A DNA stretch of 64,000 nucleotides from an uncultured Bdellovibrionales bacterium. Its GTDB lineage: Bacteria > Patescibacteriota > Minisyncoccia > Moranbacterales > UBA1568. Shown here piece after piece: positions 9,791 through 28,724 of the stretch (its first letter is position 1; each line of letters starts with the position of its first letter). The translations under genes were made by a program, and so were the position numbers. The notes beneath the pieces are model-generated. The model was given only the letters and a program-made list of their open reading frames with translations. It searched no databases and was not told the DNA's origin. The stretch spans positions 22,792 through 86,791 of the forward strand of contig CAYLJX010000001.1 of the NCBI GenBank assembly GCA_964384235.1, given 5' to 3'.

Positions 9791-9797
9791 GTCTTTT

Positions 9798-10756: not shown

Positions 10757-10787
10757 AAAAGAAAACCGCCTTTATTCGGCGGTTTTC
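10757..10787. terminator. bidirectional terminator hairpin
   Basis: AAAACCGCC-tttattc-GGCGGTTTT with T/A runs on both sides. Confidence 0.5.
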
Positions 10788-10802
10788 GTTTGTCTTAACT
10801 TT

Positions 10803-11348: not shown

Positions 11349-11584
11349 ATTATTGTTGCTAAGGAATTATTAAATTTGAGAATCCAGTTCTGAGAACACA
11401 AAAGGCCCTACGAACCGGTGGCAATCCTTTCGGACTGTCTCGGCGCTCTTTCGAACGTCGACCTTAGCAACAAGTACCGGCCATAGGGCCGTTTCTGTTG
11501 CTAAGGGTTTTATTGCGCCATGCCCGTATTGCTACGAGTTTAGGCATTATTGTACCTCAATTATAGCTTTTTAAGGGACGAAAA

Positions 11585-12940: not shown

Positions 12941-13024
12941 AGGATCAAGCCAATGAATGACGCAGACCCGAATCCTTGTCTAGACCCTCTCAAAAACCCC
13001 TCAAAGCCTTGTTAAAACCCTCTC

Positions 13025-14464
13025 CTAGAACCAGACGATCTCTTGCCTCCCATGATCCGCCTCGATAATTTTCAGAAGCAAAATAGCGAAAGCATCGGCT
13101 AAATCATCGTGCTTTTCTACCCCAAAACCCACCAACTGCCGGATCAAGTCCTCAGCCCCTTCTTTTGGGAAAAGCACTTTACCGGATTCAATGAGGGGAG
13201 TTGTTAAGGCCAGCCGGGCTCGCTTGTCCTGTCCATGAACCTTCACACCCTGAACAAAGGGTAATCCTCCACGCTGAAGCTCCTCAATGAGCACTCTTTG
13301 GTAAGCGACGTCCTCGACGTAGATATGCGGATAGTCATTATGAACGGTAGTCAAAGCCTTCGCTCTAATGAGAGTTTTGGTTTCGTAAAAGCTTAATCGT
13401 TTATTGACCGGATGAGGCTGAATGTAGATGCGGAGGTCTGGGCCATAGCCGTAAATATGAGCGGTCACCATCGCGGTGCAGTCTGCCGTGTTATTGGAAG
13501 AAATAGCGAGGTCAATACCAATAGCCGAGTAGCGAAATTCACCTTCATTCCACCCAGGAGGGCGATCATAGTAACGGATCTTCTCTGGGAAAATAAGCTG
13601 ACCTTCACTCGGGACAATCTTTAGGAGAAATTCTCTTTGCCAGGCGATATCGTTGCCTACTTTCCGCTCTTCTCGAATCAAATCTTCTTTTGCTGAATAT
13701 TTCCCGGGCCACAGGCATACTCCATCTTTATCAATGAGCGGATACTCCTTAAACACTCCATCAACTTTTCCGTTCTCAATATCTTGCTTCAGTCGCATAA
13801 GAAGAGAATCCTCATGGAGAAGATTTCCGACAAGTACCAGTCGAGTGTTCTGGTCTCCGGCTGGAATGACTTCGCTCGTAAGCCACTGGTAGGTTTTATC
13901 CCGGCTTTCTTTGGTTCGAGTCGAATCCATGTCTTCGAGATCGTCTCCAATAATAAGACTCGGCCGGTACTGATTATGTCGCAGTCCTCGAATACTTTGC
14001 TCACGCGAGGCAATACTGATCCGAGCATTGAGCTTGGTGAAAACAAGAGTAGCCGTACCCCATTCATCCGAATCTTCCTGAAACGGTCCAAGGTCATTCT
14101 TCAAAAGCTCATTGCTTTCAAGCTCTCGCTTAATGTTTACCATGTGCTGTTTGGCCTGGGTCCTCGTCTGGCAGAGAATCAGGATAAACTTATGGGCTTG
14201 TTTTCCAAGAATCGCCCAGAGCGTATACGAGAGCGTAATAATCGTTGACTTGGCCGAGCCACGGAAAGAAACAACGAGCAGGAATTTAATACCCTCGTCT
14301 TCGGTCAAAGCAAAAATATCTTTCTGGAACTCTGCCGTCTCATACTTCACGTAGTGGGCAAAGTAGAAATGGAAGAAGAGTAGATGGTTTTGTCTGACGA
14401 TTTCTCTTCGAACCTCTCGGTCACGAAGCATGTGCTGGAAAACTTTTTGAGAAAGGACGGACAT
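13025..14464 (-). CDS. phage terminase large subunit (TerL)
   Basis: ATPase Walker A VVSFRGSAKST and Walker B LIIGDDLEDM, plus a C-terminal RNaseH-like nuclease with acidic residues (IGIDLA, VEDVAYQ, HDDLADA). Confidence 0.85.
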   Translation of the reverse strand: MSVLSQKVFQHMLRDREVRREIVRQNHLLFFHFYFAHYVKYETAEFQKDIFALTEDEGIKFLLVVSFRGSAKSTIITLSYTLWAILGKQAHKFILILCQTRTQAKQHMVNIKRELESNELLKNDLGPFQEDSDEWGTATLVFTKLNARISIASREQSIRGLRHNQYRPSLIIGDDLEDMDSTRTKESRDKTYQWLTSEVIPAGDQNTRLVLVGNLLHEDSLLMRLKQDIENGKVDGVFKEYPLIDKDGVCLWPGKYSAKEDLIREERKVGNDIAWQREFLLKIVPSEGQLIFPEKIRYYDRPPGWNEGEFRYSAIGIDLAISSNNTADCTAMVTAHIYGYGPDLRIYIQPHPVNKRLSFYETKTLIRAKALTTVHNDYPHIYVEDVAYQRVLIEELQRGGLPFVQGVKVHGQDKRARLALTTPLIESGKVLFPKEGAEDLIRQLVGFGVEKHDDLADAFAILLLKIIEADHGRQEIVWF

Positions 14465-14466
14465 AG

Positions 14467-14856
14467 CTATTTTCCCCCTTTCTTATTCAGTCCAGCGAGC
14501 TTCAAAGCCTGCGTTACAACCGCTTTCTGTTCTCTACTCAGTTCTTTATTTTGGTCTGGCACCGTTGTTACCTCAATACGATCGCGAAATTTCTGGTGTC
14601 GGTGCCGCAGCCAGAAACTAATCGCCGGATAGTTCCTGTCACGAATGAGAGAGATGAGTTGAGACTCGCCCATATCGTTAATGAGAGCTTCACCTTCGAT
14701 CAGAGCCTCTTCCATCGCGTGGCGGAACTTCGAACTTTCTTTCCGCCAGCGATAGACCGTCGCTCGGGCAACCCCGGCTTTCTCGCAGGCGATCTGGATA
14801 ATGGGAATCTTTCTCAAATGATCGAGAAAGATTTGTTTCGTGCGGTTTGCTTTCAT
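14467..14856 (-). CDS. terminase small subunit-like HTH DNA-binding protein
   Basis: 129 aa immediately upstream of TerL with a 4-nt overlap to the MTase. HTH segment IACEKAGVARATVYRWRK. Confidence 0.5.
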   Translation of the reverse strand: MKANRTKQIFLDHLRKIPIIQIACEKAGVARATVYRWRKESSKFRHAMEEALIEGEALINDMGESQLISLIRDRNYPAISFWLRHRHQKFRDRIEVTTVPDQNKELSREQKAVVTQALKLAGLNKKGGK

Positions 14857-16238
14857 ACGCGTACTGCTTTCTTACCAGTCAGTTTTTCCCAGCGTTTCCG
14901 GATCACCTCGGCGTAGATAGGTGACTTTTCCATGAGGTAACAACGCCGCTTCATCTTTTCGCAGGCCATGAGGGTAGAACCGCTTCCACCGAAGGGTTCA
15001 ACAACGAGATCGCCCCGCCGGGTGAGAACCTTGAGGTAAGGAATGAGGATTTCCAATGGCTTGGTGCCGAAGATAATCCCTTGCCCCGAACTCTTCTTGT
15101 CAGCGGCTTTGTACTCGATGAAGTCGGTCGGACAAATCTTCTTCCCTTTCTCATACGATTCCCAGTGCGGCTTTCCACCAATGGCGTAGAGCGCAGTCTC
15201 ATACTCGTTCTGGAGCGGCTCTTCTTCGGGATCAATGTTATACGGCACTTCGCCTCCGCTACCGACCATGGCGATATCGTGCTTGTTGAAGAATTTGTAC
15301 TTGGCCGAGAATCCCTGGACTCGATTCGGGAGATGCCACACGATCATATTCTTCACCCGCCAATACTTCTCCATCTCGTCCCAGATGGTCCGAATATTCT
15401 TCCAGTTTTCGTACACAATGATGGAGAAGTCATCAGAAGCTACTTTCGAAATATTACCCATCCACTTTTCGGTGAAGTCGTCCGGCAAGGCATCAGTTTC
15501 GAGATAGCGACGGTTACGTTTCGCACCAAAGCCTTCAGTCGCCTCGCCGTTCTTTTTCTTGCCCCTGAGATAATCGAGGATGTAGGGCGGATCAGTGAAA
15601 CACATACTAGCCTTCTCATTGCCCATGAGCTTCCACATATCGGCTTCAACCGTTGAGTCACCACACATGAGCTTCGAATCTCCAAGCATCCAGACATCGC
15701 CTTTCTTAATTTCAATATTTTGGATATTGAGGCTCTTGAGTTCTTTCTCGAGGTCAAACATTTCGGGTGTATCTTCCATGGCAAAAATCTCATCGAGGTC
15801 TTCGCTCGAAAATCCGACATCGGCCAAGAACTCTTCACCGAAACTTTTGAGGAGGTCCCAATCGAACTCACCGACATTCTTGTTCAGGCGAATGTTGAGT
15901 TCTTTCTCCTTCGCGATATCTGGGATGGAGAGGTAGACCACGGGCATCTCCTTAATTCCAAGCTTCTTGGCCATGGCAAGACGGAAGTGGCCACCGATGA
16001 CAATGTTCATGCGCTCCGGTGCGCTGTTCACTACCAAGGGATCGATCATCCCAAAGCGCCGGAGACTCTCTTGGAGTTCTTCCTCTGCTTCTTTGCTCCA
16101 TTTCCTCGGGTTATATTCCGATGCCTTCAGCGCTGAGGCATCAACGTACTCGACCTGCAACCGACTGTCTTCATGCTTTGTCATATGTATGACCCTTAAT
16201 GAATTAGGGCAGGAGGCTTTCGCAAACAAAAAACCCAC
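14853..16238 (-). CDS. ParB-like nuclease domain fused to DNA methyltransferase (N6-adenine/N4-cytosine, beta class)
   Basis: N-terminal ParB motif (VIGGHFRLAMAKKLG). MTase motif IV DPPY (MCFTDPPY) and a C-terminal motif I FGGSGST. Typical phage orphan MTase architecture. Confidence 0.85.
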   Translation of the reverse strand: MGFLFAKASCPNSLRVIHMTKHEDSRLQVEYVDASALKASEYNPRKWSKEAEEELQESLRRFGMIDPLVVNSAPERMNIVIGGHFRLAMAKKLGIKEMPVVYLSIPDIAKEKELNIRLNKNVGEFDWDLLKSFGEEFLADVGFSSEDLDEIFAMEDTPEMFDLEKELKSLNIQNIEIKKGDVWMLGDSKLMCGDSTVEADMWKLMGNEKASMCFTDPPYILDYLRGKKKNGEATEGFGAKRNRRYLETDALPDDFTEKWMGNISKVASDDFSIIVYENWKNIRTIWDEMEKYWRVKNMIVWHLPNRVQGFSAKYKFFNKHDIAMVGSGGEVPYNIDPEEEPLQNEYETALYAIGGKPHWESYEKGKKICPTDFIEYKAADKKSSGQGIIFGTKPLEILIPYLKVLTRRGDLVVEPFGGSGSTLMACEKMKRRCYLMEKSPIYAEVIRKRWEKLTGKKAVRV

Positions 16239-16473
16239 TCTGCGTGAAACACAAAAAAACGAACTGCTTCATTTTTTTATGTCTCCTACAGAATGGGCAT
16301 GATTGAGAGCGGACGCTCTCTTTGGCGAAGAGGCTTCAATCCTTCGCGCTTATCGGCCAAGCCGAGATACATACTCTTTCGAGTGGGAAACTAGATTGTT
16401 TAAGTTTGCTAGTTCAAAGTATATTCTCTCTTGAAAAATCGTCAAGCTGGTCAAAAAGACCAGTATCTGATTC

Positions 16474-16502
16474 TTTACTTACACTGAAAAGCATTGTATA
16501 AT
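16474..16502 (+). promoter_or_regulatory. putative sigma70-type promoter for the island plus-strand operon
   Basis: TTTACT, a 17-nt spacer, then TATAAT (16497-16502) 14 nt upstream of the ATG at 16516. Small inverted repeats (CTGGTC-aaaaa-GACCAG at 16447-16463) lie just upstream. Confidence 0.35.
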
Positions 16503-16515
16503 AGCCGGAAAGCGT

Positions 16516-17307
16516 ATGGATTTTACCCCTTTGATAAACCATTGGAATGGTATCTCCGTGGAACAACGGAGCATTTTGTTGTTCGGCGGACTGATCTCGC
16601 TTGTCACTTTATTCATCGGCTTTATTTTTCGAGAACTTATATGGAAAGCCATTATATGGGTCTTTAGAAAGCTCTTTCATCCAAAGAAGCAATCCGCTGA
16701 ACCAATGAGCACTACTGAGGAAGCAATCTTTGCTTCTGAGGCTGTCGGTTTATCAGAAATCGGTACGCATATCATTGGCTCACGAGTAAATGGAGGTGTT
16801 CAACCGGTTTCAATTCAGATAGTGGGAGCAAATAGTGGACCAATTAATATTTCTCAACCGTTAAACCCAGATCCTAGGGCCACTTTACCGCCGACTAACC
16901 CGGAAACTTCATTGGCAACCCCTGAGGATGCCCTTTCTATTCCACCCAGAAGGAACATTACCGTAGAACTGGAAGAAAAATCTCTTTCAATATGTGGCGA
17001 CATCGAAAGGTATTTCCCAGGAAATGGTGACAGTATCCGAACTGAATATATCGCAGCTCAGAGAGCCAAGACTGACGGAAAAATGGCAATGGCAGCTGGA
17101 AAATATACCAAGATCTTTAATAATATTCTTCGACTTCTCGGAAGTTCACCTCACTGTTCTACTCAAGAACTCAAAGATCTTTTGTCCGAACTAGGCGGTA
17201 ATATTCAAGTCATGGATGAATCATTGAAAATGGGTCACTTAGAGCAGTCAGAGCTCGATAGCTGCGAACTTCATATCATGCGCATTTTCACCAAGTTCCC
17301 CGTATGA
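16516..17307 (+). CDS. hypothetical membrane-anchored protein (island operon gene 1)
   Basis: 263 aa with one N-terminal TM (LLFGGLISLVTLFIGFIF). Stop overlaps the next gene start (ATGA). Confidence 0.5.
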   Translation: MDFTPLINHWNGISVEQRSILLFGGLISLVTLFIGFIFRELIWKAIIWVFRKLFHPKKQSAEPMSTTEEAIFASEAVGLSEIGTHIIGSRVNGGVQPVSIQIVGANSGPINISQPLNPDPRATLPPTNPETSLATPEDALSIPPRRNITVELEEKSLSICGDIERYFPGNGDSIRTEYIAAQRAKTDGKMAMAAGKYTKIFNNILRLLGSSPHCSTQELKDLLSELGGNIQVMDESLKMGHLEQSELDSCELHIMRIFTKFPV

Positions 17308-20300
17308 ATAAAATCAACGTATATAAAAAAATTGATGAAGTAGTGAAAGCTGGTCCTTCTCATACCAAAAGGGAGGAACTTTTACTTTTGACAAGCGAAG
17401 AGGATTCTCGAAACTATTTTTATTCTGGAGCAGGTGAAATGTGGCTTTCATGGCTTTGGGAAAATCATTTTCTTGATCCGATAAAGGAAAAAGTCAACGA
17501 TCAAAACATTCCCACTAACCAACTTCCAGAGTTATTTTATCTTTCCCGAATTAGCGAAAAAGCTCCGGAAGTAGTTGCAAAGATTCTATTAGACATACCC
17601 GTCTCATCAAACTCTAATCAGATGGTAGTTGCTCAGTTCTTCAGAATAATAAGTGAGATGCCCGCAAAAGAACTACCTCCGCTGATTCAGAAGATGTCTC
17701 AGGAGAACTGGCTCCCTGTCATTAGTAGATATGGTCATATCGGATTTGACTTCGAGCGGATGTTTAGAGTTTTGGTAGAAGTAAGCGATTGGGAAAGCGT
17801 CCTTTCTCTTAGCCAGATGCTGTTGTTGGTAAAGGAGAAGCCGTCCAATGATGACTCATCATCGTGGGCTGACAACCCATTCTACTGTACCGATCTTGAA
17901 TACTCCGGCGTGTTTAATATTTTGTGCAACATTGAAGATGCTCACCTTGAACAATCTCTCGCTCTAGTGTCAGAAACCATGGGCAGCGTAGTGCACTATA
18001 ACGCAGACAAAAGGGAGCCGAGAGAGGCCTTCAAGGTTGGTGACGGATTTGCGTTTTATGAGATAGACTTTTTCACTCTCGAAACGAGTCAAAAAAGACA
18101 CACTTCTTATCGGGACGACGTTCGAAACTTAGCGGCAACTCTCAAGAAACTCTGTCAAAGAGTCTTTGAAAAAAATAAGGAAAACGAAAAAGAAGTTCGC
18201 CGGATATATAGTCAATACATTGAAACATTACCTGATAGTCAGGCAATGTGGCGGTTTCGTCTTTTCGTTCGAAGTCTGAATTCGGAGATTTTTCATCAAG
18301 AAATCAAAGACGCTATTTTCAGAATTGGAAAAGTGGCACGACCACATGACCTCACATCGCCAGAATACAAACGGCTTCTTCAACAGAACCTCAAGATCTT
18401 TTCTGAAAAAGAGAAACAAGATTACAAAAGTACTATTTTCAAGCTCATAGAAGATGAAAATGAGGGTCTTTCAAAATATGATGCTTACAGTATCTGCTCA
18501 TCGATTTTTGAGTGGCTTACTGACGAAGAAAAAGGGATTGCTGCAAACTATTCGAAACATGAGTTGGATCCTACCTATGTTCCGGAAACCACGATCCACT
18601 CACCGAAAGGTGGGACGGTAAGGAGTCTCTCTCCTATCTCTGATAATGAACTTCAAAAATCAGTAAGCGAAATAGCAAAGAGTCTTCGTAATGAGTGGGC
18701 TCCACAAAACCTGGGAAGAAAGGATGATTATAAAGAGGATTCTATAGACGAGTACGGCCCAGAAGGACTTGCTAACAAAATCAAAGAGAAGATTTCCGAA
18801 AGGCTGCAAGAATTTATTGATCATGCCCAAGAGTTCTTTGAGCCAGGTACTCTTGATGAGCATTACACCTATACATTTATAGGCGGTGTTCGTGATGCGT
18901 TTGGTGCTGGGAAGTTTGAATCTACCACCAATTGGGATGGGTTAATGAAGCTTTTTTCATTGATTGTTAACCAAGGTCGTTTACAAAATGGGAAATGGAG
19001 ACGAGAGGAATTCCTTGAATCTCTTGCTGGATGGACGGCTACTTATAGCGTTCTCGCAGAACTTATCAACGAGCTTGTTAAAGTCCGTAAAGACAAGACT
19101 CGGTCTTTTGACTTCACGAATAACAGAGATCAAGTTCTGGAAGTGATAAGGTATCTTCTTGCTCATCCAGATCCTACTGTAGAAAGTGAGGTATGCACCC
19201 CTAAAATTAAAAATGCCTCTGATACAGAGGATGAGGTGAAGTATGATTGCTCTGATCCTTTTACTCATGCCATTAACTCAGTGCGAGGTAAGGCATTTGA
19301 GGCTCTGATTAACTTTATGTACCGTGATGGCGAGAAACTCTCGAAAGAAAATACTGTATTAATCAGTGACGACGTAAAGAAGGTATACGAGGAACTTCTG
19401 GAACATGAAGATACGCGCGCAGTGAGATTTCTTTTTGGCCACTACCTTCCATCTGTGTATTTTCGTGATAAAGCATGGGCCGACAAGGTTGTTATCCCAA
19501 GGCTTTTTGACTTTGAAAACAACAAGGATCTATCCTTGGCTTCCTGGGAAGGATACCTGGCAAATAATGTATATCGCGATCTCTTCCTAAGGCTTGAGTT
19601 GTATTACCTCAAGAATATTCAATTGAAGCGAGAGGAATACACTCCTCGTGAGTATTTCAAGAATCTCGATGAGGGTATGGCGACCCATATAGCAATAGCC
19701 TTTATGCATTTTCCTGAAATTGCCCTTGAGTCAAATGTATTCAAGACCTTTTGGAAAGAGAAGAATGTAAAACGACAAAGCGAATTCATTTCATTTGTCG
19801 GTCGTTATGCTATATCTCGTGATAATGCAGCAGAGTGGATAAAGACAAATGGAGTGGATAAAGACAAGGTTGAGGCCTTCTGGGATTGGCTTTTATCGAA
19901 CACTGAAATTGACCAAAAAGTTTTTGAAGCGTTTGGATTCTGGATGGACGCAGAATGGAAAGTTTTTGATCCAAGTTGGCAAGCTGAGTATGCAAGAAGA
20001 ACTCTTGAAAAAACTCGGGGTGTTATCGATTGGGACTATAATCTCCAACAGTCACTCCCTGTATTTGTCAAAGTAGCTCCACAAGACACTCTGGCGATAC
20101 TGAGGCTATACTTACTTGATTATCTTTCTCAGAAAATGGAGCATCAGGGTTACTTCCACTTGGATGACGAGATTACCGAGGTATTTGAAGCGCTCTATAA
20201 TAATCCTGATACAAAACAAGGTGTCTATGATCTTATAGACGCTTTACTTCCTCGTGGGAATGGCGCTTTTTGGAAATTAAAAGACGTACTGAAAGATTAA
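17304..20300 (+). CDS. large hypothetical protein, 998 aa, predominantly alpha-helical (island operon gene 2)
   Basis: Long uninterrupted ORF with consistent AT-rich codon usage. No catalytic motif recognisable. Helical-repeat-like composition. Confidence 0.55.
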   Translation: MNKINVYKKIDEVVKAGPSHTKREELLLLTSEEDSRNYFYSGAGEMWLSWLWENHFLDPIKEKVNDQNIPTNQLPELFYLSRISEKAPEVVAKILLDIPVSSNSNQMVVAQFFRIISEMPAKELPPLIQKMSQENWLPVISRYGHIGFDFERMFRVLVEVSDWESVLSLSQMLLLVKEKPSNDDSSSWADNPFYCTDLEYSGVFNILCNIEDAHLEQSLALVSETMGSVVHYNADKREPREAFKVGDGFAFYEIDFFTLETSQKRHTSYRDDVRNLAATLKKLCQRVFEKNKENEKEVRRIYSQYIETLPDSQAMWRFRLFVRSLNSEIFHQEIKDAIFRIGKVARPHDLTSPEYKRLLQQNLKIFSEKEKQDYKSTIFKLIEDENEGLSKYDAYSICSSIFEWLTDEEKGIAANYSKHELDPTYVPETTIHSPKGGTVRSLSPISDNELQKSVSEIAKSLRNEWAPQNLGRKDDYKEDSIDEYGPEGLANKIKEKISERLQEFIDHAQEFFEPGTLDEHYTYTFIGGVRDAFGAGKFESTTNWDGLMKLFSLIVNQGRLQNGKWRREEFLESLAGWTATYSVLAELINELVKVRKDKTRSFDFTNNRDQVLEVIRYLLAHPDPTVESEVCTPKIKNASDTEDEVKYDCSDPFTHAINSVRGKAFEALINFMYRDGEKLSKENTVLISDDVKKVYEELLEHEDTRAVRFLFGHYLPSVYFRDKAWADKVVIPRLFDFENNKDLSLASWEGYLANNVYRDLFLRLELYYLKNIQLKREEYTPREYFKNLDEGMATHIAIAFMHFPEIALESNVFKTFWKEKNVKRQSEFISFVGRYAISRDNAAEWIKTNGVDKDKVEAFWDWLLSNTEIDQKVFEAFGFWMDAEWKVFDPSWQAEYARRTLEKTRGVIDWDYNLQQSLPVFVKVAPQDTLAILRLYLLDYLSQKMEHQGYFHLDDEITEVFEALYNNPDTKQGVYDLIDALLPRGNGAFWKLKDVLKD

Positions 20301-20306
20301 ATTCGT

Positions 20307-21350
20307 ATGGGATTTGAAAGCACAGAAGAGTATAAGAAAATCTTTAAATTTAGCAATAATAAGAGTTTACGACTTCTTACACGAGAAAGTAGTACTATTG
20401 AATTTAAAGTTTCTTTCAACTGGAGGTCGAAGGATGAGTACGCGAAGAGTGTTGCTGCTTTTGCAAATAAACAAGGAGGTTTCCTCATCTTTGGGGTCAA
20501 GGATAAACCAAGGGAGTTAGTTGGCCTTCAATCAGATAAATTCGAGGAGATAGATGAGGCAGTAATTTCTGAATATTTAAATAGCTTGTTTTCTCCTGAG
20601 ATAGAGTTTGAAAAGTTTGTAGTGAAGGTTCGAGATAAGGATGTAGGGGTAATAAAAGTCCATTCTGTAGGTCAGAAGCCTGTCGTAGCAACAAAGAATG
20701 ATGGTTCTGTAAGAGAGGGTGAAATCTATTATCGGTACAATGCAAAAAAGGAGAAAATAAAGTTTCCTGAACTTAGAGAGTTACTGGACAAGATTCGAGA
20801 AGAAGAGCGCAAGGAATGGATGTCTCTGTTTTCAAGAATCTCTAGCATAGGGCCAGAGAATGCAGCGCTTCTAGATATGGCCAGTGGCAGAATAGAGGGG
20901 AAGACAGGTACATTGGTTATAGATAGAAAATTAATTTCTAAACTGAAATTTATTCAGGAAGGAAGGTTTCACGAGACTGGATCTCCTACGCTTAAACTGG
21001 TTGGCGAAGTAAGGCCTATCACAGTAGTGAAATCTAGAAGATCCTCAGCTGGTGGTAAGTTAAAGATTACCAACGATCCATCCGCTCCAGAAGTTAGAGT
21101 TAAAGAAGAGGACTTGTTAAATGAATATTCCCTAGATTACAAAGCTCTTACAAAAGAGCTTGTAAAAAGGTACCAGGATTTCAAACCAAATAAAAAATAC
21201 CACGAGGTCCGTAAATTTCTAATGAAGAAGGAAGGGAACTCATTTACTCGGACACTAAATCCAAAAAATGCTAAGAGTGTAAAGCAGGACTTTTATAGCC
21301 CTAGGATAATTAAGGCGTTCGGTAAGTTTTACAAAAAGAAAACGAGTTAG
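20307..21350 (+). CDS. AlbA_2 (Schlafen-like putative DNA/RNA-binding) domain protein
   Basis: N-terminal region IEFKVSFNWRS...AKSVAAFANKQGGFLIFGVKDKPRELVGL matches the PF04326 AlbA_2 signature (EFK...AFAN..GG.lxxGV.D). Confidence 0.6.
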   Translation: MGFESTEEYKKIFKFSNNKSLRLLTRESSTIEFKVSFNWRSKDEYAKSVAAFANKQGGFLIFGVKDKPRELVGLQSDKFEEIDEAVISEYLNSLFSPEIEFEKFVVKVRDKDVGVIKVHSVGQKPVVATKNDGSVREGEIYYRYNAKKEKIKFPELRELLDKIREEERKEWMSLFSRISSIGPENAALLDMASGRIEGKTGTLVIDRKLISKLKFIQEGRFHETGSPTLKLVGEVRPITVVKSRRSSAGGKLKITNDPSAPEVRVKEEDLLNEYSLDYKALTKELVKRYQDFKPNKKYHEVRKFLMKKEGNSFTRTLNPKNAKSVKQDFYSPRIIKAFGKFYKKKTS

Positions 21351-21353
21351 TTT

Positions 21354-22424
21354 GTGATTTCTTCATATAAATATCTCAAAGACTATACATACTACTCTGA
21401 CCTCTATGATCGCTTCACCATAGAGGAGTGCCAGCGTTGGGAAGACAAGGAATATCCTGTACCACCTGAAGAATCCGACAAGGAAGCAAAACTGAGAAAA
21501 GTAAAAGAAGAATTCCTTCAAAAAGTGGTTACTCCTCTCGGACTCTACTTTCTCACTGCTGACCGCGCTGCAAAGAAACCTGAAACCATTCAGGAATGGA
21601 TGAGGCGAGACCAAGAAAAGGACGAGCGAGTCACCAACGCTGAAGAACCGAGAAGTATCCGCTGTCTGGGGTGCAGTGCGTTTTTGACAAACTGCATCTC
21701 GCGAGATCTCATGGATAATCACCAAGGACGAGAAGAGGTCCTTTTTATGTTTGAATGTGGCCAGTGTCACAAACGCCGAGCCTTTTGGGAAGATGGCAGA
21801 GAGTGGGAATACAAACCGAAGTGTATAAAGTGCCAGTCAGAAGTGGCGTCGGAAACGACTAAAAAAGATGCTCTCCTTACCACTCGATACACCTGCTCCC
21901 ATTGTGGTCATGTGGAGATAGATACTATGGATCTCAGTAAGAAAGAAGAGGAAAAGATTGATCCTAATTTTGAGGCTAACCGGAAGAAATACTGTATCTC
22001 AGAGCTCGAAGGACAGCGGATTATCCGTGAATCGGAAGAGATGAAGGAGTTTGTTGATAAATGGAAAGAGAGGGATAAGAACAAAGACCTTTATGATGCC
22101 ATAGGAAAGATACAGAAGCTCACCATTGTTGAGCTCCAAGCTCTCCTTGACCCACTTCTTGAAAAAGCTAGCTATACCAAACTCGAGTTCGAGAAGCCCG
22201 TTCTGGAGAAAGATGTTATCCTCGAATTCGGGCTCCAAGATGCCAAATCTGGCCGAGGAGACTATGATAGCCGTCATGATCTTCAAAAGCTCTTCAAAGA
22301 GGCTCTAAGCCCTACAAATTGGCGCCTGATGAGCGATGGAGTCACTTATCGTCTTGGATTCCTCCAAGGGCGCCTAAAGGGCGTAGAAGGCGAGGAAAAG
22401 TTCAAAGAGCTCCTCGAATCCTAA
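21354..22424 (+). CDS. zinc-ribbon protein, hypothetical
   Basis: Four CxxC pairs (CLGC, CGQC, CIKC, CSHC) forming two predicted zinc ribbons. Otherwise charged and helical. Confidence 0.5.
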   Translation: MISSYKYLKDYTYYSDLYDRFTIEECQRWEDKEYPVPPEESDKEAKLRKVKEEFLQKVVTPLGLYFLTADRAAKKPETIQEWMRRDQEKDERVTNAEEPRSIRCLGCSAFLTNCISRDLMDNHQGREEVLFMFECGQCHKRRAFWEDGREWEYKPKCIKCQSEVASETTKKDALLTTRYTCSHCGHVEIDTMDLSKKEEEKIDPNFEANRKKYCISELEGQRIIRESEEMKEFVDKWKERDKNKDLYDAIGKIQKLTIVELQALLDPLLEKASYTKLEFEKPVLEKDVILEFGLQDAKSGRGDYDSRHDLQKLFKEALSPTNWRLMSDGVTYRLGFLQGRLKGVEGEEKFKELLES

Positions 22425-22497: not shown

Positions 22498-22526
22498 TGG
22501 ACAAAACGTGTTTTTTGATGTATAAT
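22498..22526 (+). promoter_or_regulatory. putative internal promoter
   Basis: TGGACA, a 17-nt spacer, then TATAAT (22521-22526) in the 142-nt gap before the kinase gene. Confidence 0.4.
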
Positions 22527-22566: not shown

Positions 22567-23178
22567 ATGTCATTCGAAAGCTACAAGCAAGATTCTCGGG
22601 ATATGCATCTCAACCCTGCCGAAGGTAGGGAGTATGCGGAGGCGCTAGAATCATTATTGGAAAAATACAAGGATAAGAGAGTGCTTGTACTTGCGCCACC
22701 AAGTGTTGGGAAGAGTACCATTCTTCAGCATATTAAGGAGGGCGTTGATTTGGATGTGGTGTTTGATGATATGCCAGAAGAATTTAAAAGACATGTGCTG
22801 CACCACGAACACCCGTTTATGTTTATTGATGGTGATAAGAAAACGGTAAAATACACTGAAAAAGAATTTGATCCAATGAGTGATGAGCATCAGGACCACC
22901 TAAAAAAGACAACGGAATCATTGACAGAATATACTCAGAACAAGGTAAATATTGAAGCAGGGCATCCCGCTTTCGGGAGTACACTCATAGATGCGGATGT
23001 CGTTATTTATCTTAAGATTTCTGACGAGGAGCTCAAGAAAAGAATTGAGGCACGGAATACCAAGACTTATCGACTTGCTCAGCTCGAAAGGGTAAAAGCG
23101 ATAAAGAAAAACCTTGAAGCTGATTTGGAGAGATTGAGATCGGAAGGAAAGATTGTCGAGGAGCTGGCAATCTCATAA
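22567..23178 (+). CDS. P-loop NTPase / nucleotide or polynucleotide kinase-like protein
   Basis: Walker A LAPPSVGKST and Walker B-like VVFDD. 203 aa. Confidence 0.6.
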   Translation: MSFESYKQDSRDMHLNPAEGREYAEALESLLEKYKDKRVLVLAPPSVGKSTILQHIKEGVDLDVVFDDMPEEFKRHVLHHEHPFMFIDGDKKTVKYTEKEFDPMSDEHQDHLKKTTESLTEYTQNKVNIEAGHPAFGSTLIDADVVIYLKISDEELKKRIEARNTKTYRLAQLERVKAIKKNLEADLERLRSEGKIVEELAIS

Positions 23179-23201: not shown

Positions 23202-23744
23202 ATGAAAATGCAGAAGAAGATAGTCTTTTTGGATGGCGACGGGACGCTCTGGTATCCCAAAGCGACGAAGCGTACGCAAAAACCTCACTGGATTTACCAT
23301 GATCCAGCAACGAAAGATAACTACCTTGAACATCTGGAGTTGACACCTCGGACCAAGGAAACCCTCGAAGCTCTACGAGAAAAGGGAGTCTACCTCGTAG
23401 TGCTTTCAGCCAACCCTTACGCTGAAGAAATAGCTATCAAAGAGATTAAAGAACGACTCGAACACTTTGGACTCAGTAGTTTGTTCTATGCACACAGATC
23501 TTCGAGTGGAGATGATCCAAATGGTAAAGCAACCATTATGGTGGAAATTCTCTCTTCTCTAGGTCTCCGTAAAGAGGACGCGCTGATGGTTGGAGATAGC
23601 TACTTCTATGACTATCTTGCAGCCAAGAATGTTGGTATAGATGCTCTGTTTATTGAAAATGGCGTTTCAAAAATGCCAGAGGAAATCCCTCAGGATTTGC
23701 AGTCAATCAAAGAGGTCCACGAATTGCTTGATATATTGGCCTGA
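23202..23744 (+). CDS. HAD-superfamily phosphatase
   Basis: Motif I FLDGDGTLW (DxDxT), motif II S (VVLSANP), motif III K, and motif IV GDSYFYD. Confidence 0.7.
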   Translation: MKMQKKIVFLDGDGTLWYPKATKRTQKPHWIYHDPATKDNYLEHLELTPRTKETLEALREKGVYLVVLSANPYAEEIAIKEIKERLEHFGLSSLFYAHRSSSGDDPNGKATIMVEILSSLGLRKEDALMVGDSYFYDYLAAKNVGIDALFIENGVSKMPEEIPQDLQSIKEVHELLDILA

Positions 23745-23751: not shown

Positions 23752-26700
23752 ATGAATGCAGATACCGCAAGAGAAAAGCTCTTAGAATTTAACCAGAAGG
23801 GCGATGCCAGTATACTGGTTGGCTTGCTGGGTATTGCTGAGCATGATGTCGAAAGTGCCATACGTTTTATTAATGCACATGCTGACAAGAATCAGCTAGA
23901 GACATTAGTATTTCAACCACTGAAGGTCAATGAAAAGCATCTCGTATTTGTTGATCCATCGCTTGAGATCAAGGCGGTTAGTACGGATATTGTTCATCTG
24001 AAAAAGACGCTGGAGCAGATTAAGATGTATGATAATGAGAATCCTGTAAGTGTAACTTCCAGTGTTGACTTGAGATGCTTACTCCTCTCGTTAGCAAAGT
24101 CAGAACTCAAATCTTATGATGTTTTTACGAATTTCAATACCGATAACTTAGGTAAAGCCACTCTAAGAAAGTGCCTCGAAGATGAAAAGAACTGGATTAA
24201 AGAAAGAGTTCAAATTCAAAAAGAGCTCATAAATCGCAGCTATAGAAGCGCGGTAGCCTTGGCACGAAAAGTAGCGCGATCCAAAAAGCTCGGGAGAGGT
24301 ATTTACTGCGTGAGAGGGTCTGTGGCTTCAGGAAAGTCTTCATTTATTGAAGGTATCCTTCGCCAGAATATACGGGTATTTGAGAACTCTGGTGGAGTTT
24401 TAAATACTGACGCTCTGAAAAGACAGCTCCTAGTCAATACCCTAAATGTGACTGGTCACGCGCTTTCCGGGTATCTCTTTCACGAGGAAGCTTCAGTCAT
24501 CAGTGAAAAAGTCCTCAAGCTAATTAAAAAATCAACCTCTGGCTACGTAGTTGATAGGAGAATGCAAGATGCTACTGACCTTGATGAATTATTAGTAGAT
24601 GCTGCCGAGAGAAAATTGCCAGTTACCATCTTTGACCTGAAAGTAGATTTCATAACATCAGCTCTGCGTGTTCTTGAGAGAACAGGCGTATATCCAAGCG
24701 ATCCTACGCCAGACTTTTTAGCCTTGTACAAAAGCTATAGAACCATAGAGGAAGGTCGCCTATCCTTCTTAGAAAAATCACTTCGTGCAAAGTCCGTAAA
24801 AAATTACTCTGTTGTTCGAGTGAATAGTAATGGGCATCCGGTCATTGTTAATCTCAAGAAGGACTATAGGGTTAATAAGAAGAGTACGGAACAGGAGTCG
24901 GAAGTGCGATATATAGCAAGTGCTGATAGTTTGCGCGATACAGTGCTCTCTAATGGAAAAACACTCCAGCATACCCTTGATGAGCACTCATACAAGAACT
25001 ACAACATGCGCTATTCTCGGCAAGAGTATTTGGATAGTCTTTTGCATAATATCGAAAAGACTAGCAGAACATTTGCTGGTGAGTTAAATGTCTCTGCATC
25101 AAAAGATAAGTCTCGGCTAGTCAATTTGTTCATGCCGAAGAACGATCTGGCTGATACAACAAGGAATAATATCACTCAAGCATTTGATTTTGTATATGAG
25201 AATAAAAACCTGCCTCTGATATCACCGCAGGTACTCCGAGATTTTATTGATCAAATAGCAAGGATTGTTAATCAAGGGATCGTAAGCGACGAGAATCTGA
25301 TTCTTCGGAGTGGGAGTAATTCCCATAAGTATTTTTATGTAGATACTCGATACATAGAAAGGTTCTATCAATCATTCGTGAATCAGTTTTTCGAAAAGCT
25401 CAATGATCCGGTGATTACATCAGTGGATCTTGCTGCATGGGTTGAATGGAATATCGACTTCTGCGGACATATTTTTGTCGACGGCTGTGGCAGAATAGCC
25501 AAGGTTGTAAGCGCCTGGTTGTTAATGAGAGATAATAGCGACTTACCAGATTATAGTATTGGTCAGGATGGGTTTGAAACAGTCCGAGAATCCTATCGAA
25601 GAAGGTTTGCTCTGAAAGCTAGAGTTCGTCTTCAAATACCAGCTGATACAAAGAGTTATCGTAGCTTTTTGGCCTACTATAGGAGATTGTTCAACCCTAA
25701 GGAAACCTATAAAGTTCTTGCTTCAGGAGGTTTAATATACAATTCATCAGGGCAATTTTTGATACTCCAGACCAGTAAAGGTAAAGATTATGGAAAATGG
25801 GTCGTACCAGGTGGTAAACTTGGCGTTCAAGAGACTCCTGTCGCAGCTTTTGTTCGTGAGGTTTTCGAAGAAACGGGACTGAAGATTGATCACATCATGC
25901 TGATGGGAGTACGAGACTATACGGCAAAAAGTGGTAACCACTATCATTTTTACGACTATACCTCCACTGTTGTAGAAGAGAAAGAAATCAGGATCAATGA
26001 GGAATCACTTTCCTTCAAGTGGATTACGAAGGACCAGATACCAAATTATAAATTTACAGACTCTATTGCTAACTTTGTCAATAAGTACTTTGCATTGGAA
26101 CGCTTGGATATCTATAGCAAGGTAGTTACGGTTCCTGATAAGAACTTTGATTCCCCATACCTAGATGATCACACGATGACTGTTTCATTGGAAAAGTATG
26201 TTCAATCCAAACTACCAGTAGAGCTGATAACGACTAAAGTTAAGACAATAGATAGGGTAGAAGTCCACGGTATATATCCAGATCTTAAGGTTTTAAATGA
26301 TCTTAACCTTGGATTTAATATCCTGGAGGTAATTCACTTCAGTAAACAAAAAAGTGACAACAGCAACAGTTTGAGGCCGATGTTCTTATTAGCTGAAAAA
26401 GACTCTAAGAAACTCCTTGTTTGCTGTGTAACCCCGGGCCGGGATTTATTGATCCACTACGCTTCTATGTTGAAGTATTATTTCAGAAACTCATCAACTC
26501 CTGTATTGGCTTATGCTTATCCGTTCGCCGAAAAGAAAATCGATAAATGGACTGGGTTGGATAACAAGATGATTATAAAAAACGATATCGTTATCCTTGG
26601 TTACAGTACTTTCTTTAGGAATCAGTTTGAGAAAGACCCTGATTTTTCCGTACTCAGCACCTATCAGAACAAGTATTACTCTGCTACGAGATTTATTGCT

Positions 26701-27285
26701 AAAAATGGCAAGATAGTAAATTGTCTTGAAGCAAACTATGGACATTGGGGTGACATAAGTGACTTTTTGGCGCAGAAGATATGTCAGTTACATGCATCAG
26801 AAATTCTACACATAGGTAAGGTTGGTACTTTGAAGTCTCCGAGCGAAGTGTATAAGCGAATCTATATACCGAAATCTTTCGTCATAGGAAGAAGGAATGA
26901 GATTATGAGTATTGGCTCCAGAATCAGTAACTCGATGGAGTACATAAAGGAACATTCTTCCTTGGCACACGTTTCAGTATCTACAACAATGGAAGAAACA
27001 TTTGCTCAACGGAAAAACTTATCTCAAAAAAAGGTCGACACTATAGATATTGAATCTTCAAAGATTGCCCGTGCGGTTGCCCTATACAACTTAGCAAATA
27101 AGGCAAAAGTGAAGTTTGGAGCAATACACTTCTCTTCTGATTATTTGAAAAAGCCAGATGAGGTCGGTAATGGTGCAGATTTGGATTTGGCAACCAATAG
27201 AGAGGAATTGGAATACAGAAAGAAAAGTATCCTGATTGAAATTTCGTCTGTTATAAAAAAACATCTTCTAAAGACAAGTTCTTAG
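23752..27285 (+). CDS. 1177-aa multidomain protein: P-loop (zeta-toxin/AAA-like) kinase, Fic/Fido motif, Nudix hydrolase, nucleoside phosphorylase (PNP_UDP_1)-like
   Basis: Start taken at ATG 23752 (MNADTAR); the tracked ORF start at 23641 would overlap the HAD gene. Walker A GSVASGKSS (res 189-197). Fido motif HIFVDGCGR (res 573-581). Nudix box GGKLGVQETPVAAFVREVFEETGL (res 686-709). C-terminal VSVSTTMEETF...DIESSKIARAVALYNLANKAKVKFGAIHFSSDY resembles the DeoD/MTAN active-site region. Confidence 0.75.
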   Translation: MNADTAREKLLEFNQKGDASILVGLLGIAEHDVESAIRFINAHADKNQLETLVFQPLKVNEKHLVFVDPSLEIKAVSTDIVHLKKTLEQIKMYDNENPVSVTSSVDLRCLLLSLAKSELKSYDVFTNFNTDNLGKATLRKCLEDEKNWIKERVQIQKELINRSYRSAVALARKVARSKKLGRGIYCVRGSVASGKSSFIEGILRQNIRVFENSGGVLNTDALKRQLLVNTLNVTGHALSGYLFHEEASVISEKVLKLIKKSTSGYVVDRRMQDATDLDELLVDAAERKLPVTIFDLKVDFITSALRVLERTGVYPSDPTPDFLALYKSYRTIEEGRLSFLEKSLRAKSVKNYSVVRVNSNGHPVIVNLKKDYRVNKKSTEQESEVRYIASADSLRDTVLSNGKTLQHTLDEHSYKNYNMRYSRQEYLDSLLHNIEKTSRTFAGELNVSASKDKSRLVNLFMPKNDLADTTRNNITQAFDFVYENKNLPLISPQVLRDFIDQIARIVNQGIVSDENLILRSGSNSHKYFYVDTRYIERFYQSFVNQFFEKLNDPVITSVDLAAWVEWNIDFCGHIFVDGCGRIAKVVSAWLLMRDNSDLPDYSIGQDGFETVRESYRRRFALKARVRLQIPADTKSYRSFLAYYRRLFNPKETYKVLASGGLIYNSSGQFLILQTSKGKDYGKWVVPGGKLGVQETPVAAFVREVFEETGLKIDHIMLMGVRDYTAKSGNHYHFYDYTSTVVEEKEIRINEESLSFKWITKDQIPNYKFTDSIANFVNKYFALERLDIYSKVVTVPDKNFDSPYLDDHTMTVSLEKYVQSKLPVELITTKVKTIDRVEVHGIYPDLKVLNDLNLGFNILEVIHFSKQKSDNSNSLRPMFLLAEKDSKKLLVCCVTPGRDLLIHYASMLKYYFRNSSTPVLAYAYPFAEKKIDKWTGLDNKMIIKNDIVILGYSTFFRNQFEKDPDFSVLSTYQNKYYSATRFIAKNGKIVNCLEANYGHWGDISDFLAQKICQLHASEILHIGKVGTLKSPSEVYKRIYIPKSFVIGRRNEIMSIGSRISNSMEYIKEHSSLAHVSVSTTMEETFAQRKNLSQKKVDTIDIESSKIARAVALYNLANKAKVKFGAIHFSSDYLKKPDEVGNGADLDLATNREELEYRKKSILIEISSVIKKHLLKTSS

Positions 27286-27369: not shown

Positions 27370-27492
27370 GTCTTGTTTTATCCCTGAAACCGCGACCCGA
27401 CCTCTTTAATTCACTCGTTGGCCAAGACTCTCAAGAAATCCCTCAACGGCTTGATTTCTCAAAGTTCTAGACCGATGACGCCCGCACTGAAA

Positions 27493-27533
27493 CTCAAAAG
27501 GATACTCGTCCGAGTATCCTTTTGAGTTTTTTT
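27493..27533 (+). terminator. strong intrinsic terminator
   Basis: 16-bp perfect stem CTCAAAAGGATACTCG / CGAGTATCCTTTTGAG followed by TTTTTTT. Confidence 0.7.
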
Positions 27534-27779
27534 GATGAAGGGAGGGATGAGAAGGGTACTTCAGAAAAGCAAACTGCTTTGCTTTTCTGAAGACCCAGGC
27601 TCTGGAGGAGAAGCGGAGGCTCTGCCGAAGCGACGGAGGAAGAGGAATCCCTCCCTTCCCGCCGTAACAAAAATCTCCAGGCTTTATGGCCTGGAGATTT
27701 TTGTTGTATAGTGGGGGTAGAGGAGCTAACTATTTGGCTTCCGTAGGGATGAGAAAAACGGAGTTACAAAAGAATAACT

Positions 27780-28115
27780 ATGGCGACGATAGACGATTTT
27801 CAAAAACTGGATATAAGGGTCGGAAAGATCGTCGAGGCTGATGATTTTCCTGAGGCCAAAAAACCTGCTTACAAACTCAAAATTGATTTCGGTTCCGAAG
27901 TCGGCATAAAAAGCTCATCGGTACAGATTGTCGCACTGTATTCAAAAGACGAACTCATCGGAAAATTAGTTCTGGGAGTAGTCAATTTTCCGCCAAGAAA
28001 AATCGGACCTTTCGAGTCGGAAGTTTTGACTCTCGGAGTACCAGATGAAGACGGCAAGGTTATTTTGATAACTCCCGATAAAGCCGAGCCGATTATCGGT
28101 GGGAAATTATTTTAG
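27780..28115 (+). CDS. csaA: tRNA-binding protein CsaA family
   Basis: DIRVGKIVEAEDFPEAKKPAYKLKIDFG, a classic CsaA/Trbp111 OB-fold. 111 aa. Confidence 0.85.
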   Translation: MATIDDFQKLDIRVGKIVEADDFPEAKKPAYKLKIDFGSEVGIKSSSVQIVALYSKDELIGKLVLGVVNFPPRKIGPFESEVLTLGVPDEDGKVILITPDKAEPIIGGKLF

Positions 28116-28280
28116 GAGGAGCGAAGCGACGCACTTAATCCCTCTCTTTCCGTACAATGAAACTTCCTAATCCTGATATTGAAATATGACAAGAGTGGCG
28201 AGGTATCCGAACGATCACGGACAATATCGAAAATACAAGGATGAATGGATGAATGATCTCAAGTCGCGAATCAACAGAGT

Positions 28281-28724
28281 ATGAATGACCTGAAAAAAGG
28301 TATAGATTATATCGGGACGTGTGTCGTCTTCTTCTGCCATGACGGGGAAGGAAACTTCGTGATGGCCAAGCGTGGCAGGAATGCCCGAAACGAGCACGGT
28401 CGGTGGGATATCGGCGGAGGCAGTATCGAGTTCGGCGACACGGCCGAAGAGACGCTTCGCAAGGAAATCCGGGAGGAATACGGTACCGATGTCCTGGATT
28501 TCGAATTCTTGGGCTATCGTGACGTACTTCTTGAATCCGGCGGACAACCGACGCACTGGCTTGCCCTGGATTTCAAGGTGCATGTCGATCCTGAAAAAGT
28601 GAAAAACGGTGAACCGCACATCTTCGACGATATCGGGTGGTTCACGTTTGACACGATTCCGGAGCAGGCTCATTCGCAGCTTCCGAAATTTCTTGATTTG
28701 TATCGGGAGAGACTCGGCGTTTGA
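28281..28724 (+). CDS. Nudix hydrolase
   Basis: Nudix box GGGSIEFGDTAEETLRKEIREEYG. Confidence 0.85.
   Translation: MNDLKKGIDYIGTCVVFFCHDGEGNFVMAKRGRNARNEHGRWDIGGGSIEFGDTAEETLRKEIREEYGTDVLDFEFLGYRDVLLESGGQPTHWLALDFKVHVDPEKVKNGEPHIFDDIGWFTFDTIPEQAHSQLPKFLDLYRERLGV

Follow-up and report, generated by a model that had tools for sequence, protein, structure and literature searches.

A window of 64,000 nucleotides, corresponding to positions 22,792 to 86,791 (forward strand) of contig CAYLJX010000001.1 from an uncultured bacterium, harbors an operon of three co-directional genes, the last of which encodes a multi-enzyme protein of 1177 residues. GatB places the window in the Moraniibacteriota (Patescibacteria), and the stretch represents Moraniibacteriota chromosome. 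The three gene products will be denoted by kin203, HAD180 and BIG, and all coordinates refer to the window.

The three-gene cassette

The first gene (22567..23178, + strand) codes for kin203, a P-loop kinase-like protein of 203 residues with a Walker A motif PPSVGKST, the pair D61-x-D63 and an arginine-rich, lid-like segment. It matches Pfam AAA_18 (E 1.3e-7, 32.6 bits at a cut-off of 29.4) and, weakly, dNK and adenylate-kinase models. The second gene (23202..23744, +) codes for HAD180, a phosphatase of the HAD superfamily with 180 residues, which is recognized by Pfam Hydrolase (1.2e-13, 52.3 bits at a cut-off of 26.4) and HAD_2 (1.9e-12) as well as by HAD-IIIA-like NCBIfam models below their cut-offs. 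Its motifs I to IV (FLDGDGTLW, LSANP, K109 and GDSYFYD) are intact and invariant, and it is among the most conserved components of the cassette (mean pairwise identity 0.72, minimum 0.60; mean column identity 81%). Profiles of kin203 and HAD180 did not reveal a specific subfamily when searched against the PDB. Pnkp-type end-healing enzymes consist of a P-loop kinase and a DxDGT HAD 3′-phosphatase. A P-loop kinase and a HAD-IIIA-like DxDGT phosphatase are likewise paired in kin203 and HAD180, as adjacent, co-conserved genes, which is taken as a lead only; contrary to Pnkp, the two are separate genes, match no PNK or PNK3P model and have no ligase or Hen1 partner.

The stop codon of HAD180 and the start codon of BIG are separated by a gap of 7 nt. 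BIG (23752..27285, +, including the stop codon) translates as an uninterrupted open reading frame of 1177 residues. An alternative in-frame ATG upstream at 23641 would extend it to 1214 residues, 23752 being the start position in all homologues and gene calls. The identical protein is found on contigs of four independent metagenome samples (L001–L004), and about 20 homologues with 42–90% identity share its length and module order. A frameshift or an assembly artefact is therefore excluded.

A promoter-like site (TGGACA-17-TATAAT, 11/12; 22498..22526, +), the best-scoring one in the region as judged by consensus match, is located in the 142-nt gap 5′ of kin203. At the other end the operon is closed by an intrinsic terminator with a perfect 19-bp stem followed by U7 (27489..27533, +; −31.5 kcal/mol), whose fold has a z of −6.7 and is matched in stability by 0/200 shuffles. 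Rfam returned nothing above any gathering score for the cassette and its flanks. A single operon running from the predicted promoter to this terminator encodes kin203, HAD180 and BIG. Their order and short spacers are kept in all 20 related loci fetched, which stem from at least 10 unrelated neighbourhoods with BIG identities down to 42%. BIG is not a stand-alone fusion but occupies the last position of a cassette whose makeup is strictly conserved, a point missed by an earlier, sequence-only reading of this DNA; moreover, some genomes encode the Nudix domain and the C-terminal module as genes of their own. The other genes of the island around the cassette in the window are never linked to it in other loci. 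All modules of BIG and of the cassette are under purifying selection.

Domain architecture of BIG

BIG combines in one chain a kinase of the AvrRxo1 type, a Fic domain of unusual sequence, a Nudix hydrolase and a domain resembling nucleoside phosphorylases, with four active-site signatures that appear intact in its translation. The sequence-only reading had assigned P-loop kinase, Fic/Fido, Nudix and PNP-like nucleosidase domains. Translation confirms the frame and the positions of the Walker A motif, HIFVDGCGR, the Nudix box and the C-terminal blocks, and the four calls stand at the superfamily level: the kinase can be narrowed down to the AvrRxo1/XopAJ type, the Nudix domain is solid, the Fic domain is reached via remote homology only, and the PNP-like domain has moderate structural support but none from hidden Markov models (HMMs). 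In the HMM check Pfam NUDIX and the NCBIfam AvrRxo1-type kinase model matched, whereas Pfam Fic and PNP_UDP_1 did not; Fic was recovered by a broadened profile. For every module these comparisons point to a known superfamily, as a member or by likeness, while none of the curated AvrRxo1, Fic and NP-I cut-offs is reached. NUDIX is the sole domain detected by a Pfam scan of BIG, and the public annotation of BIG proteins is just "NUDIX hydrolase". Literature searches brought up no description of the domain combination and nothing relevant on polyvalent proteins or on the PADLOC name "VakA".

The N-terminal 135 residues (23752..24156, +) are of alpha/beta type according to the secondary structure of the full-length AlphaFold model (pLDDT 75) and gave no family match. 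With a mean pairwise identity of 0.48 they are the most variable part of BIG, compared to 0.62–0.73 for the other domains, of which the Nudix (0.73) and NP-I-like (0.72) domains are conserved best.

Residues ~136–400 (24157..24951, +) form a zeta-toxin kinase domain of the AvrRxo1/XopAJ type. The NCBIfam model NF041405 (XopAJ/AvrRxo1 zeta-toxin kinase) matches residues 136–380 with E 8.3e-31, its score of 107.4 bits against a curated cut-off of 300 denoting a distant relative and not a family member by the NCBI criterion. The AvrRxo1-ORF1 structure 4z8q is retrieved by phmmer (E 6e-8), and the top four Foldseek matches of the whole-protein model are all AvrRxo1-ORF1 (4z8u, 4z8v, 4z8t and 4z8q; E 7.8e-13 to 6e-12, TM on target 0.66–0.73). 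Within and beyond the Walker A motif GSVASGKSS (residues 189–197; 24316-24342, +), the residues K195, S196, D220 (24409-24411, +), K223 and R310 align with K166, T167, D193, K196 and R287 of AvrRxo1 (chain numbering plus 88), which are the catalytic residues listed by Triplett et al. (PMC4938570), and are invariant in 22 aligned sequences.

AvrRxo1 is a NAD/NAAD kinase that phosphorylates the adenosine 3′-OH and does not accept UpA as a substrate, the NAD/NAAD 3′-kinase activity being known for AvrRxo1 itself only (PMC5087710); it is bacteriostatic, part of a toxin-antitoxin pair and an injected type III effector (PMC4938570, PMC5087710). The idea of an RNA 3′-end kinase was down-weighted for the AvrRxo1-type domain, given the inactivity of AvrRxo1 on UpA (PMC5087710). 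While the kinase fold, the best NCBIfam model and the five catalytic residues are common to BIG and AvrRxo1/Arc1 of Xanthomonas, Acidovorax and Burkholderia, the two differ in other respects. The BIG kinase is 17–18% identical to AvrRxo1, scores 107 bits where the cut-off is 300, is embedded in an 1177-residue fusion and always joined to Fic, and occurs in bacteria of the Candidate Phyla Radiation (CPR) and Bdellovibrionales instead of plant pathogens. The cassette lacks an Arc1-like small antitoxin gene: no open reading frame of at least 60 residues is present between 27285 and 27780, and the upstream neighbours of BIG in all loci are genes for the HAD phosphatase and the P-loop kinase. Like avrRxo1, which is low in GC and horizontally acquired (PMC4938570), the cassette is low in GC and mobile.

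The Fic/Fido domain spans residues ~401–650 (24952..25701, +). Its motif HIFVDGCGR (residues 573–581; 25468-25494, +) continues to H-I-F-V-D-G-C-G-R-I-A-K and is conserved as H573-I-F-x-D-G-C579-G-R581-x-x-K584 (25468-25503, +). It thereby departs from the strict pattern HxFx(D/E)(A/G)N(G/K)RxxR: the motif Asn is replaced by an invariant Cys and the second Arg by Lys, while the catalytic His, Phe, Asp, Gly and the first Arg are kept. Pfam Fic (PF02661) has no match in BIG, even for the isolated Fic-like region at E 10. A narrow profile of residues 401–652 (A2) searched against the PDB gave 11 matches, all of them Fic structures in register at the motif, with E of 0.24–1.4, and a database search with the same profile revealed three divergent relatives (P0028–P0030), all carrying the DGCGR variant. 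Among these, P0028 matches the BIG Fic profile with E 8e-34 and Pfam Fic with E 5.5e-4 over nearly the whole model (21.2 bits), and P0030 matches Pfam Fic with E 2.6e-3 (19.0 bits), the cut-off being 24 in both cases. As a result of adding P0028–P0030 to the profile, the PDB matches of the broadened version (A9) become significant: FICD is found with E 8.8e-5, C. elegans FIC-1 with 1.1e-3 and 3cuc with 2.9e-3, and 14 of the 15 matches are Fic/Fido proteins in register at the catalytic loop. The domain is thus a divergent Fido domain in which an invariant Cys occupies the position of the motif Asn and Lys that of the second Arg.

The AlphaFold model is compatible with this assignment, the Fic region being all-helical with the motif between helices 557–571 and 581–593, as in the helical core and catalytic loop of the Fic/Doc superfamily (the AMPylators FICD, VopS and IbpA; Doc kinase); the whole-protein Foldseek list is occupied by kinase and Nudix structures. 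Compared to the HxFx(D/E)GNGRxxR motif of that superfamily, the Lys at the second Arg position is again Arg in P0028. The BIG domain further differs by its fusion to a kinase (to an HD domain in P0028) and by its position below the Pfam threshold. Taken together, the Fic domain of BIG is real but divergent, as recognized by remote-homology methods only. An inhibitory (S/T)xxxE(G/N) motif was not seen in BIG by eye, no systematic search having been made. Upstream of the motif a conserved TSRT-x-G...SAS-x-DK block is common only to the few relatives P0028–P0030.

P0028 itself (L021 8001-10441, on a 211 kb metagenome contig) is an HD phosphohydrolase fused to the Cys-variant Fic domain (HFFVDGCGRTAR) and suggests that the DGCGR subfamily may pair generally with nucleotide phosphohydrolases. 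RAMP (type III CRISPR) genes and a gene for an SMC/AAA_23 ATPase are found within a few kb of it. A 418-residue open reading frame beside P0028 was considered as a relative of the C-terminal module of BIG and rejected (the match carried a very low probability).

The Nudix hydrolase domain (residues ~651–785; 25702..26106, +) is supported by Pfam, by Foldseek and by its occurrence as a separate gene in locus L022. Pfam NUDIX (PF00293) matches with E 1.9e-16 (60.7 bits at a cut-off of 21.1), and Foldseek lists many Nudix structures ranked after AvrRxo1-ORF1. The Nudix box (G688–L710; 25813-25881, +) is a perfect GX5EX7REUXEEXGU (G688...E694...R702-E703-V-F-E706-E707-T-G-L). As in MutT-like pyrophosphohydrolases it is preceded by a GKWxxPGGK lead-in, the BIG domain differing from these by being embedded in a fusion. 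The best equivalog models are MutT (38.1 bits against a cut-off of 148) and PRK08999; since every equivalog score is far below its cut-off, a substrate class cannot be assigned.

The boundary of the C-terminal module at residue 786 is fixed by natural gene splits. In loci L013 and L014 the module is a separate gene of 406 residues (58% identical), and in L022 a kinase-Fic protein of 670 residues is followed by separate genes for the Nudix domain (136 residues) and the C-terminal module (399 residues). The module comprises a VOC/glyoxalase-like sub-domain (residues ~786–940; 26107..26571, +), to which the structural matches are weak, and an NP-I (PNP/UDP/MTAN)-like domain (residues ~941–1177; 26572..27282, +). 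Foldseek retrieves VOC structures at E ~4e-3 and, with very high match probability, uridine phosphorylases at E ~1e-2. A profile search among 1.84 billion representatives yielded 367 relatives, 126 of them at E up to 1e-30, which are mostly stand-alone proteins of about 400 residues and form a family without a Pfam model.

The NP-I relationship is not seen by profile methods. Pfam gave nothing on the isolated region at E 10, PNP_UDP_1 (PF01048) included; a 10-sequence profile searched against the PDB found no NP-I chain and only weak asparaginase matches, and a 57-sequence profile found nothing. With single NP-I sequences, local hhalign was non-significant and global mode uninformative; a readable register was obtained only in greedy mode with the trimmed domain. 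The earlier claim that segments such as VSVSTTMEETF, which together with DIESSK and HFSSDY lies at residues ~1075–1131, align with the DeoD/MTAN active-site strands could be checked qualitatively only. Greedy hhalign of the trimmed family profile against E. coli DeoD, MtnN and Udp (E 0.04–0.2 each, thus individually non-significant) places D1099-x-E1101 (27046-27054) on the ribose motif E-M-E of each of these enzymes and S1129-D1130 on the catalytic S-D of DeoD (D204) and MtnN (D197). These alignments have a common register over much of the domain, with DeoD deviating in the first strand: NYGHWG is placed on the SGIGKV loop of MtnN, ILHIGKVGTL on IIRVGSCGA / IINTGSAGGL, and HVSVSTTMEETF on FSADLFY / VSGDAF / ASSDTFY. 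H1020, K1023, H1073, D1099, E1101 and D1130 (27139-27141, +) are invariant residues of the NP-I-like domain. Three of them, D1099, E1101 and D1130, are the candidate NP-I residues; they do not vary within the cassette subfamily and vary little or not at all in the wider family.

Compared to the NP-I superfamily (DeoD, Udp, MTAN, AMP nucleosidase), the confident half of the model shows the beta1-alpha1-beta2-3-4-alpha2-beta5 order, whereas HMM-level similarity is missing, an extra VOC-like sub-domain of about 150 residues is present, the position of MTAN Glu12 is Phe in the BIG subfamily (in a non-significant alignment), and the module belongs to the separate unnamed family of 367 representatives. 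On balance, an NP-I-like domain at the C-terminus of BIG is probable. NP-I members also act as immune effectors, namely the ATP nucleosidases DtcC of Detocs and Cap17 of CBASS. The likeness to such effectors drawn in the sequence-only reading finds no counterpart in PADLOC, where no effector model matches the BIG C-terminus, and CD-NTase, two-component-like or Detocs signalling genes are not found beside the cassette in any locus.

The 367-member family includes a Penicillium protein. Of its longer multi-domain members, 39 were scanned, and 15 of these carry squalene-hopene-cyclase/prenyltransferase-like toroid domains; other fusions involve GFO/IDH/MocA, DUF4062, NACHT or Nudix. The Klebsiella pneumoniae plasmid NZ_CP055107.1 (L032 6019-9505) bears an operon of NP-I-like, DMT transporter, NUDIX and DegT aminotransferase genes, and in L023 and L024 a DegT gene lies directly downstream of a C-terminal-module relative. 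The contexts of the closest stand-alone relatives (P0180, P0039) are uninformative. The label "RHS repeat-associated core" on the Klebsiella plasmid homologue H8 was rejected as a sign of a polymorphic-toxin tip; H8 is a 296-residue fragment, nearly all of which is NP-I-like module, and its ORF is located directly 3′ of the transposase gene of an IS102.

Distribution, carriers and genomic setting

The BIG family comprises 26 clusters among 5.8 billion proteins, and the cassette was found at six loci among the genomes of 185,579 species. Its carriers are Moraniibacteriota, Saccharibacteria, Gracilibacteria, Bdellovibrionales and one metagenome-assembled genome (MAG) of the Gammaproteobacteria; most hosts are CPR bacteria. 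In 11 of 11 loci the GC content of the cassette is below that of its flanks (40% versus 55% in the window). Two loci, L005 and L015, are 82% identical in nucleotide sequence along the 4.7 kb of the cassette, the similarity ending exactly with it and the flanks having nothing in common. The cassette moves as a unit; it is horizontally mobile, rare and phylogenetically scattered. A megablast of the island against E. coli genomes gave no match.

The first four carrier groups have host- or prey-dependent lifestyles, and Fic and Nudix domains are common among secreted effectors. BIG could accordingly be an effector that episymbiotic CPR bacteria or predatory Bdellovibrionales bring into the cells of their host or prey, where it would poison NAD or nucleotide metabolism, with HAD180 and kin203 as the enzymatic immunity of the producer; AvrRxo1, too, is both an injected effector and half of a toxin-antitoxin pair (PMC4938570). 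Such a role is unlikely in view of the sequence of BIG, in which no signal peptide or secretion-associated marker domain was seen, and of the loci, none of which shows a linkage of secretion-system genes with the cassette. Besides, the Gammaproteobacteria MAG is also a carrier, and the cassette is rare within the carrier phyla.

To our knowledge, CPR bacteria lack de novo nucleotide synthesis, and a predominance of CPR hosts together with modules that all act on nucleotides would also suit a salvage complex of metabolically reduced bacteria, turning scavenged NAD, CoA and nucleotides into reusable bases, ribose phosphate and nucleoside monophosphates. Several loci lie among housekeeping genes: in L005 the cassette is found beside pyruvate kinase, and in L013 (947-kb contig, 5751-16523) the cassette and several unknown ORFs of about 190 residues are located between ruvA and ruvB. 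The latter placement looks like insertion into a conserved gene pair rather than functional linkage. Salvage is an improbable explanation for a cassette of such extreme rarity even within the CPR, which is compositionally foreign in every host and has been transferred as a unit between unrelated genomes, and no role in salvage is known for AvrRxo1-type and Fic domains.

In L022, two HD_4 genes (RelA/SpoT-type small-alarmone-hydrolase-like; 179-715 and 5755-6399) are located 2–8 kb 5′ of the cassette, which may be a coincidence or a further link to 3′-phosphorylated nucleotide chemistry.

In the window itself the cassette is part of a probable integrated mobile element (10621-16238 and 27645-27662). 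A tRNA-Ser(GCT) gene (10621-10710) is followed by genes for a large serine recombinase (11585-12940, −), a terminase-large-subunit-like protein (13025-14464, −) and a ParB-N/N6_N4 DNA methylase (14853-16238, −), with a 129-residue ORF between the latter two. A 16/18 copy of the tRNA 3′ end (10693-10710) at 27645..27662 (+), short and imperfect, is a candidate attR; a second, weaker copy is present at 28136-28153. The first pair may bound an integrated element of about 17 kb with the cassette as its last cargo, as a candidate att pair only.

A degrader of immune signalling nucleotides, as offered by the sequence-only reading, or a factor restoring depleted pools would make the cassette a counter-defence device of phages or mobile elements. 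Cyclic or linear nucleotide signals could be broken down by a Nudix hydrolase and a phosphatase, and the element in the window has a terminase-like gene. This option is disfavoured because the cassette is absent from the 50,697 phage records searched, where a weak Nudix-only match was the most that was found, and because IMG/VR viral contigs contain no relative. As most loci are ordinary chromosomal contexts without phage genes, counter-defence is regarded as very improbable.

Between the methylase gene and the cassette, four co-directional low-GC genes are found (16516-22424; 263, 998, 347 and 356 residues). Of these only the 347-residue protein was matched, namely to Schlafen/AlbA_2, its C-terminus matching the PADLOC candidate PDC-S19 with E 5.6e-28, and the four genes may constitute a separate uncharacterised defence candidate. 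The 998-residue ORF contains a perfect 16-nt direct repeat, GAGTGGATAAAGACAA, in two copies 19 nt apart (19833-19867). Directly 3′ of the cassette lies a CsaA-type tRNA-binding protein gene (27780-28115), followed by a small stand-alone Nudix gene (147 residues, 28281-28724). Both are found at the same place in the near-identical L001–L004; since they are absent from other cassette loci, they are probably host genes.

A proposed role in nucleotide or cofactor conflict

The most likely role of the cassette is that of a toxin or defence module, of a design not described so far; its architecture and linkage are solid and unusual, its function is inferred. Our leading, though tentative, interpretation is a self-contained mobile conflict module of the toxin/antidote or abortive-infection type that would attack NAD or adenine nucleotides, with BIG as the effector. 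By analogy with AvrRxo1, its kinase would place a phosphate on the adenosine 3′-OH of NAD or a related ADP-containing metabolite, the Nudix domain would then cleave the pyrophosphate of the 3′-phosphorylated molecule, and the NP-I-like module would strip the base or phosphorolyse the resulting nucleotide. The modification would thereby turn into a permanent loss from an essential pool of adenine nucleotides or cofactors. As for the Fic domain, which is fused to the kinase in all cases, it might transfer a nucleotidyl or phosphoryl group onto a protein or nucleotide target. HAD180, probably coupled in translation to BIG directly 3′ of it, would remove the phosphate added by the kinase and, perhaps aided by kin203, keep the module harmless in unstressed cells of the carrier. 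Furthermore, kin203 would restore or regulate a nucleotide product, and the variable N-terminal 135 residues are a candidate for the part that senses or regulates.

In CBASS and Detocs, nucleotides are depleted by effectors with PNP-type and Nudix domains. Several observations favor the proposed conflict role: the closest characterised relatives of the kinase (AvrRxo1) and the Fic domain (Fic/Doc) are toxins or effectors, little or no variation is seen within the family at the five catalytic residues known from AvrRxo1, at the Fic His and in the Nudix box, and the cassette resides in a low-GC island with a serine recombinase, a terminase-like gene, ParB/methylase and Schlafen/AlbA_2. The strict collinearity of the three genes, their transfer as a unit, their rare and scattered occurrence and the strong conservation of HAD180 next to a variable BIG N-terminus are further arguments. 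A compact, mobile, low-GC operon with tight gene spacing and toxin-type domains points, circumstantially, to the toxin-antitoxin or abortive-infection type in particular. The nucleotide- or NAD-degrading toxin suggested in the sequence-only reading is compatible with this evidence, yet unproven.

A more specific version, with enzymes that set and remove a toxic mark on a small molecule, is considered rather unlikely. In such an immune or addiction system the kinase would produce the 3′-phosphate of NAD or another adenosine cofactor and the HAD 3′-phosphatase would continuously reverse this reaction; upon loss of the balance, the Nudix and NP-I-like domains would destroy the product irreversibly, while the Cys-variant Fic domain modifies a second target.

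A number of points weigh against the conflict module. No member of the cassette family has an established toxic effect, substrate or phage phenotype. A recognisable sensor or signalling partner was not found, the single PADLOC match being PDC-S07 over the Nudix part. The kinase is just ~18% identical to AvrRxo1, whose substrate-facing residues differ even between close homologues (PMC4938570), which makes NAD as its substrate an extrapolation. A combination of kinase, phosphatase and hydrolases is equally able to form a constructive pathway, and a metabolic role is conceivable in hosts that are mostly CPR bacteria relying on scavenged nucleotides. Finally, the C-terminal family co-occurs with DegT, DMT transporter and Nudix genes in operons and with GFO/IDH/MocA in a fusion, and such tailoring and export neighbours fit biosynthesis better than destruction.

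The six catalytic modules (two kinases, phosphatase, Fic, Nudix and NP-I-like) might constitute an assembly line for a nucleoside or nucleotide that is built or tailored into, for example, an antimetabolite, a chain terminator or a signal, with kin203 and HAD180 as pathway steps instead of antidotes. Nudix, DegT and GFO/IDH/MocA form the enzyme set of 3′-amino-3′-deoxyadenosine (puromycin-type) pathways, which also act at the adenosine 3′ position. The Klebsiella plasmid operon, the DegT genes of L023 and L024 and the fusions to GFO/IDH/MocA oxidoreductases and terpene-cyclase-like toroids described above are in line with this view, as is the purifying selection on all modules. Nevertheless, an aminotransferase, an oxidoreductase or an exporter never occurs in the cassette itself, the kinase and Fic modules have relatives among toxins or effectors, and conflict genes are the more typical case of sporadic occurrence, low GC and mobility. 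Biosynthesis is considered unlikely, though it is the first of the rival explanations.

Little is known about how CPR/Patescibacteria defend themselves and interact with hosts, and candidate conflict modules seen mainly in this group, such as the cassette, are very few. In addition, BIG appears to contain two uncharacterised sub-families that are easily testable, namely the Fic domain with the invariant Cys and the module of about 380 residues composed of VOC and NP-I-like domains (367 representative clusters, no Pfam model). If the conflict module is real, it would constitute a new architecture for nucleotide- or NAD-targeting systems, with four sequential activities in one polypeptide and two co-inherited small enzymes as possible catalytic antidotes. 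The AvrRxo1 product 3′-NADP, so far associated with a plant-pathogen effector only, would gain a role inside bacteria, and in the more specific version with a reversible 3′ mark the cassette would be the first described defence-type system of the CPR based on 3′-NADP chemistry, its antitoxin being an enzyme and not a binding protein.

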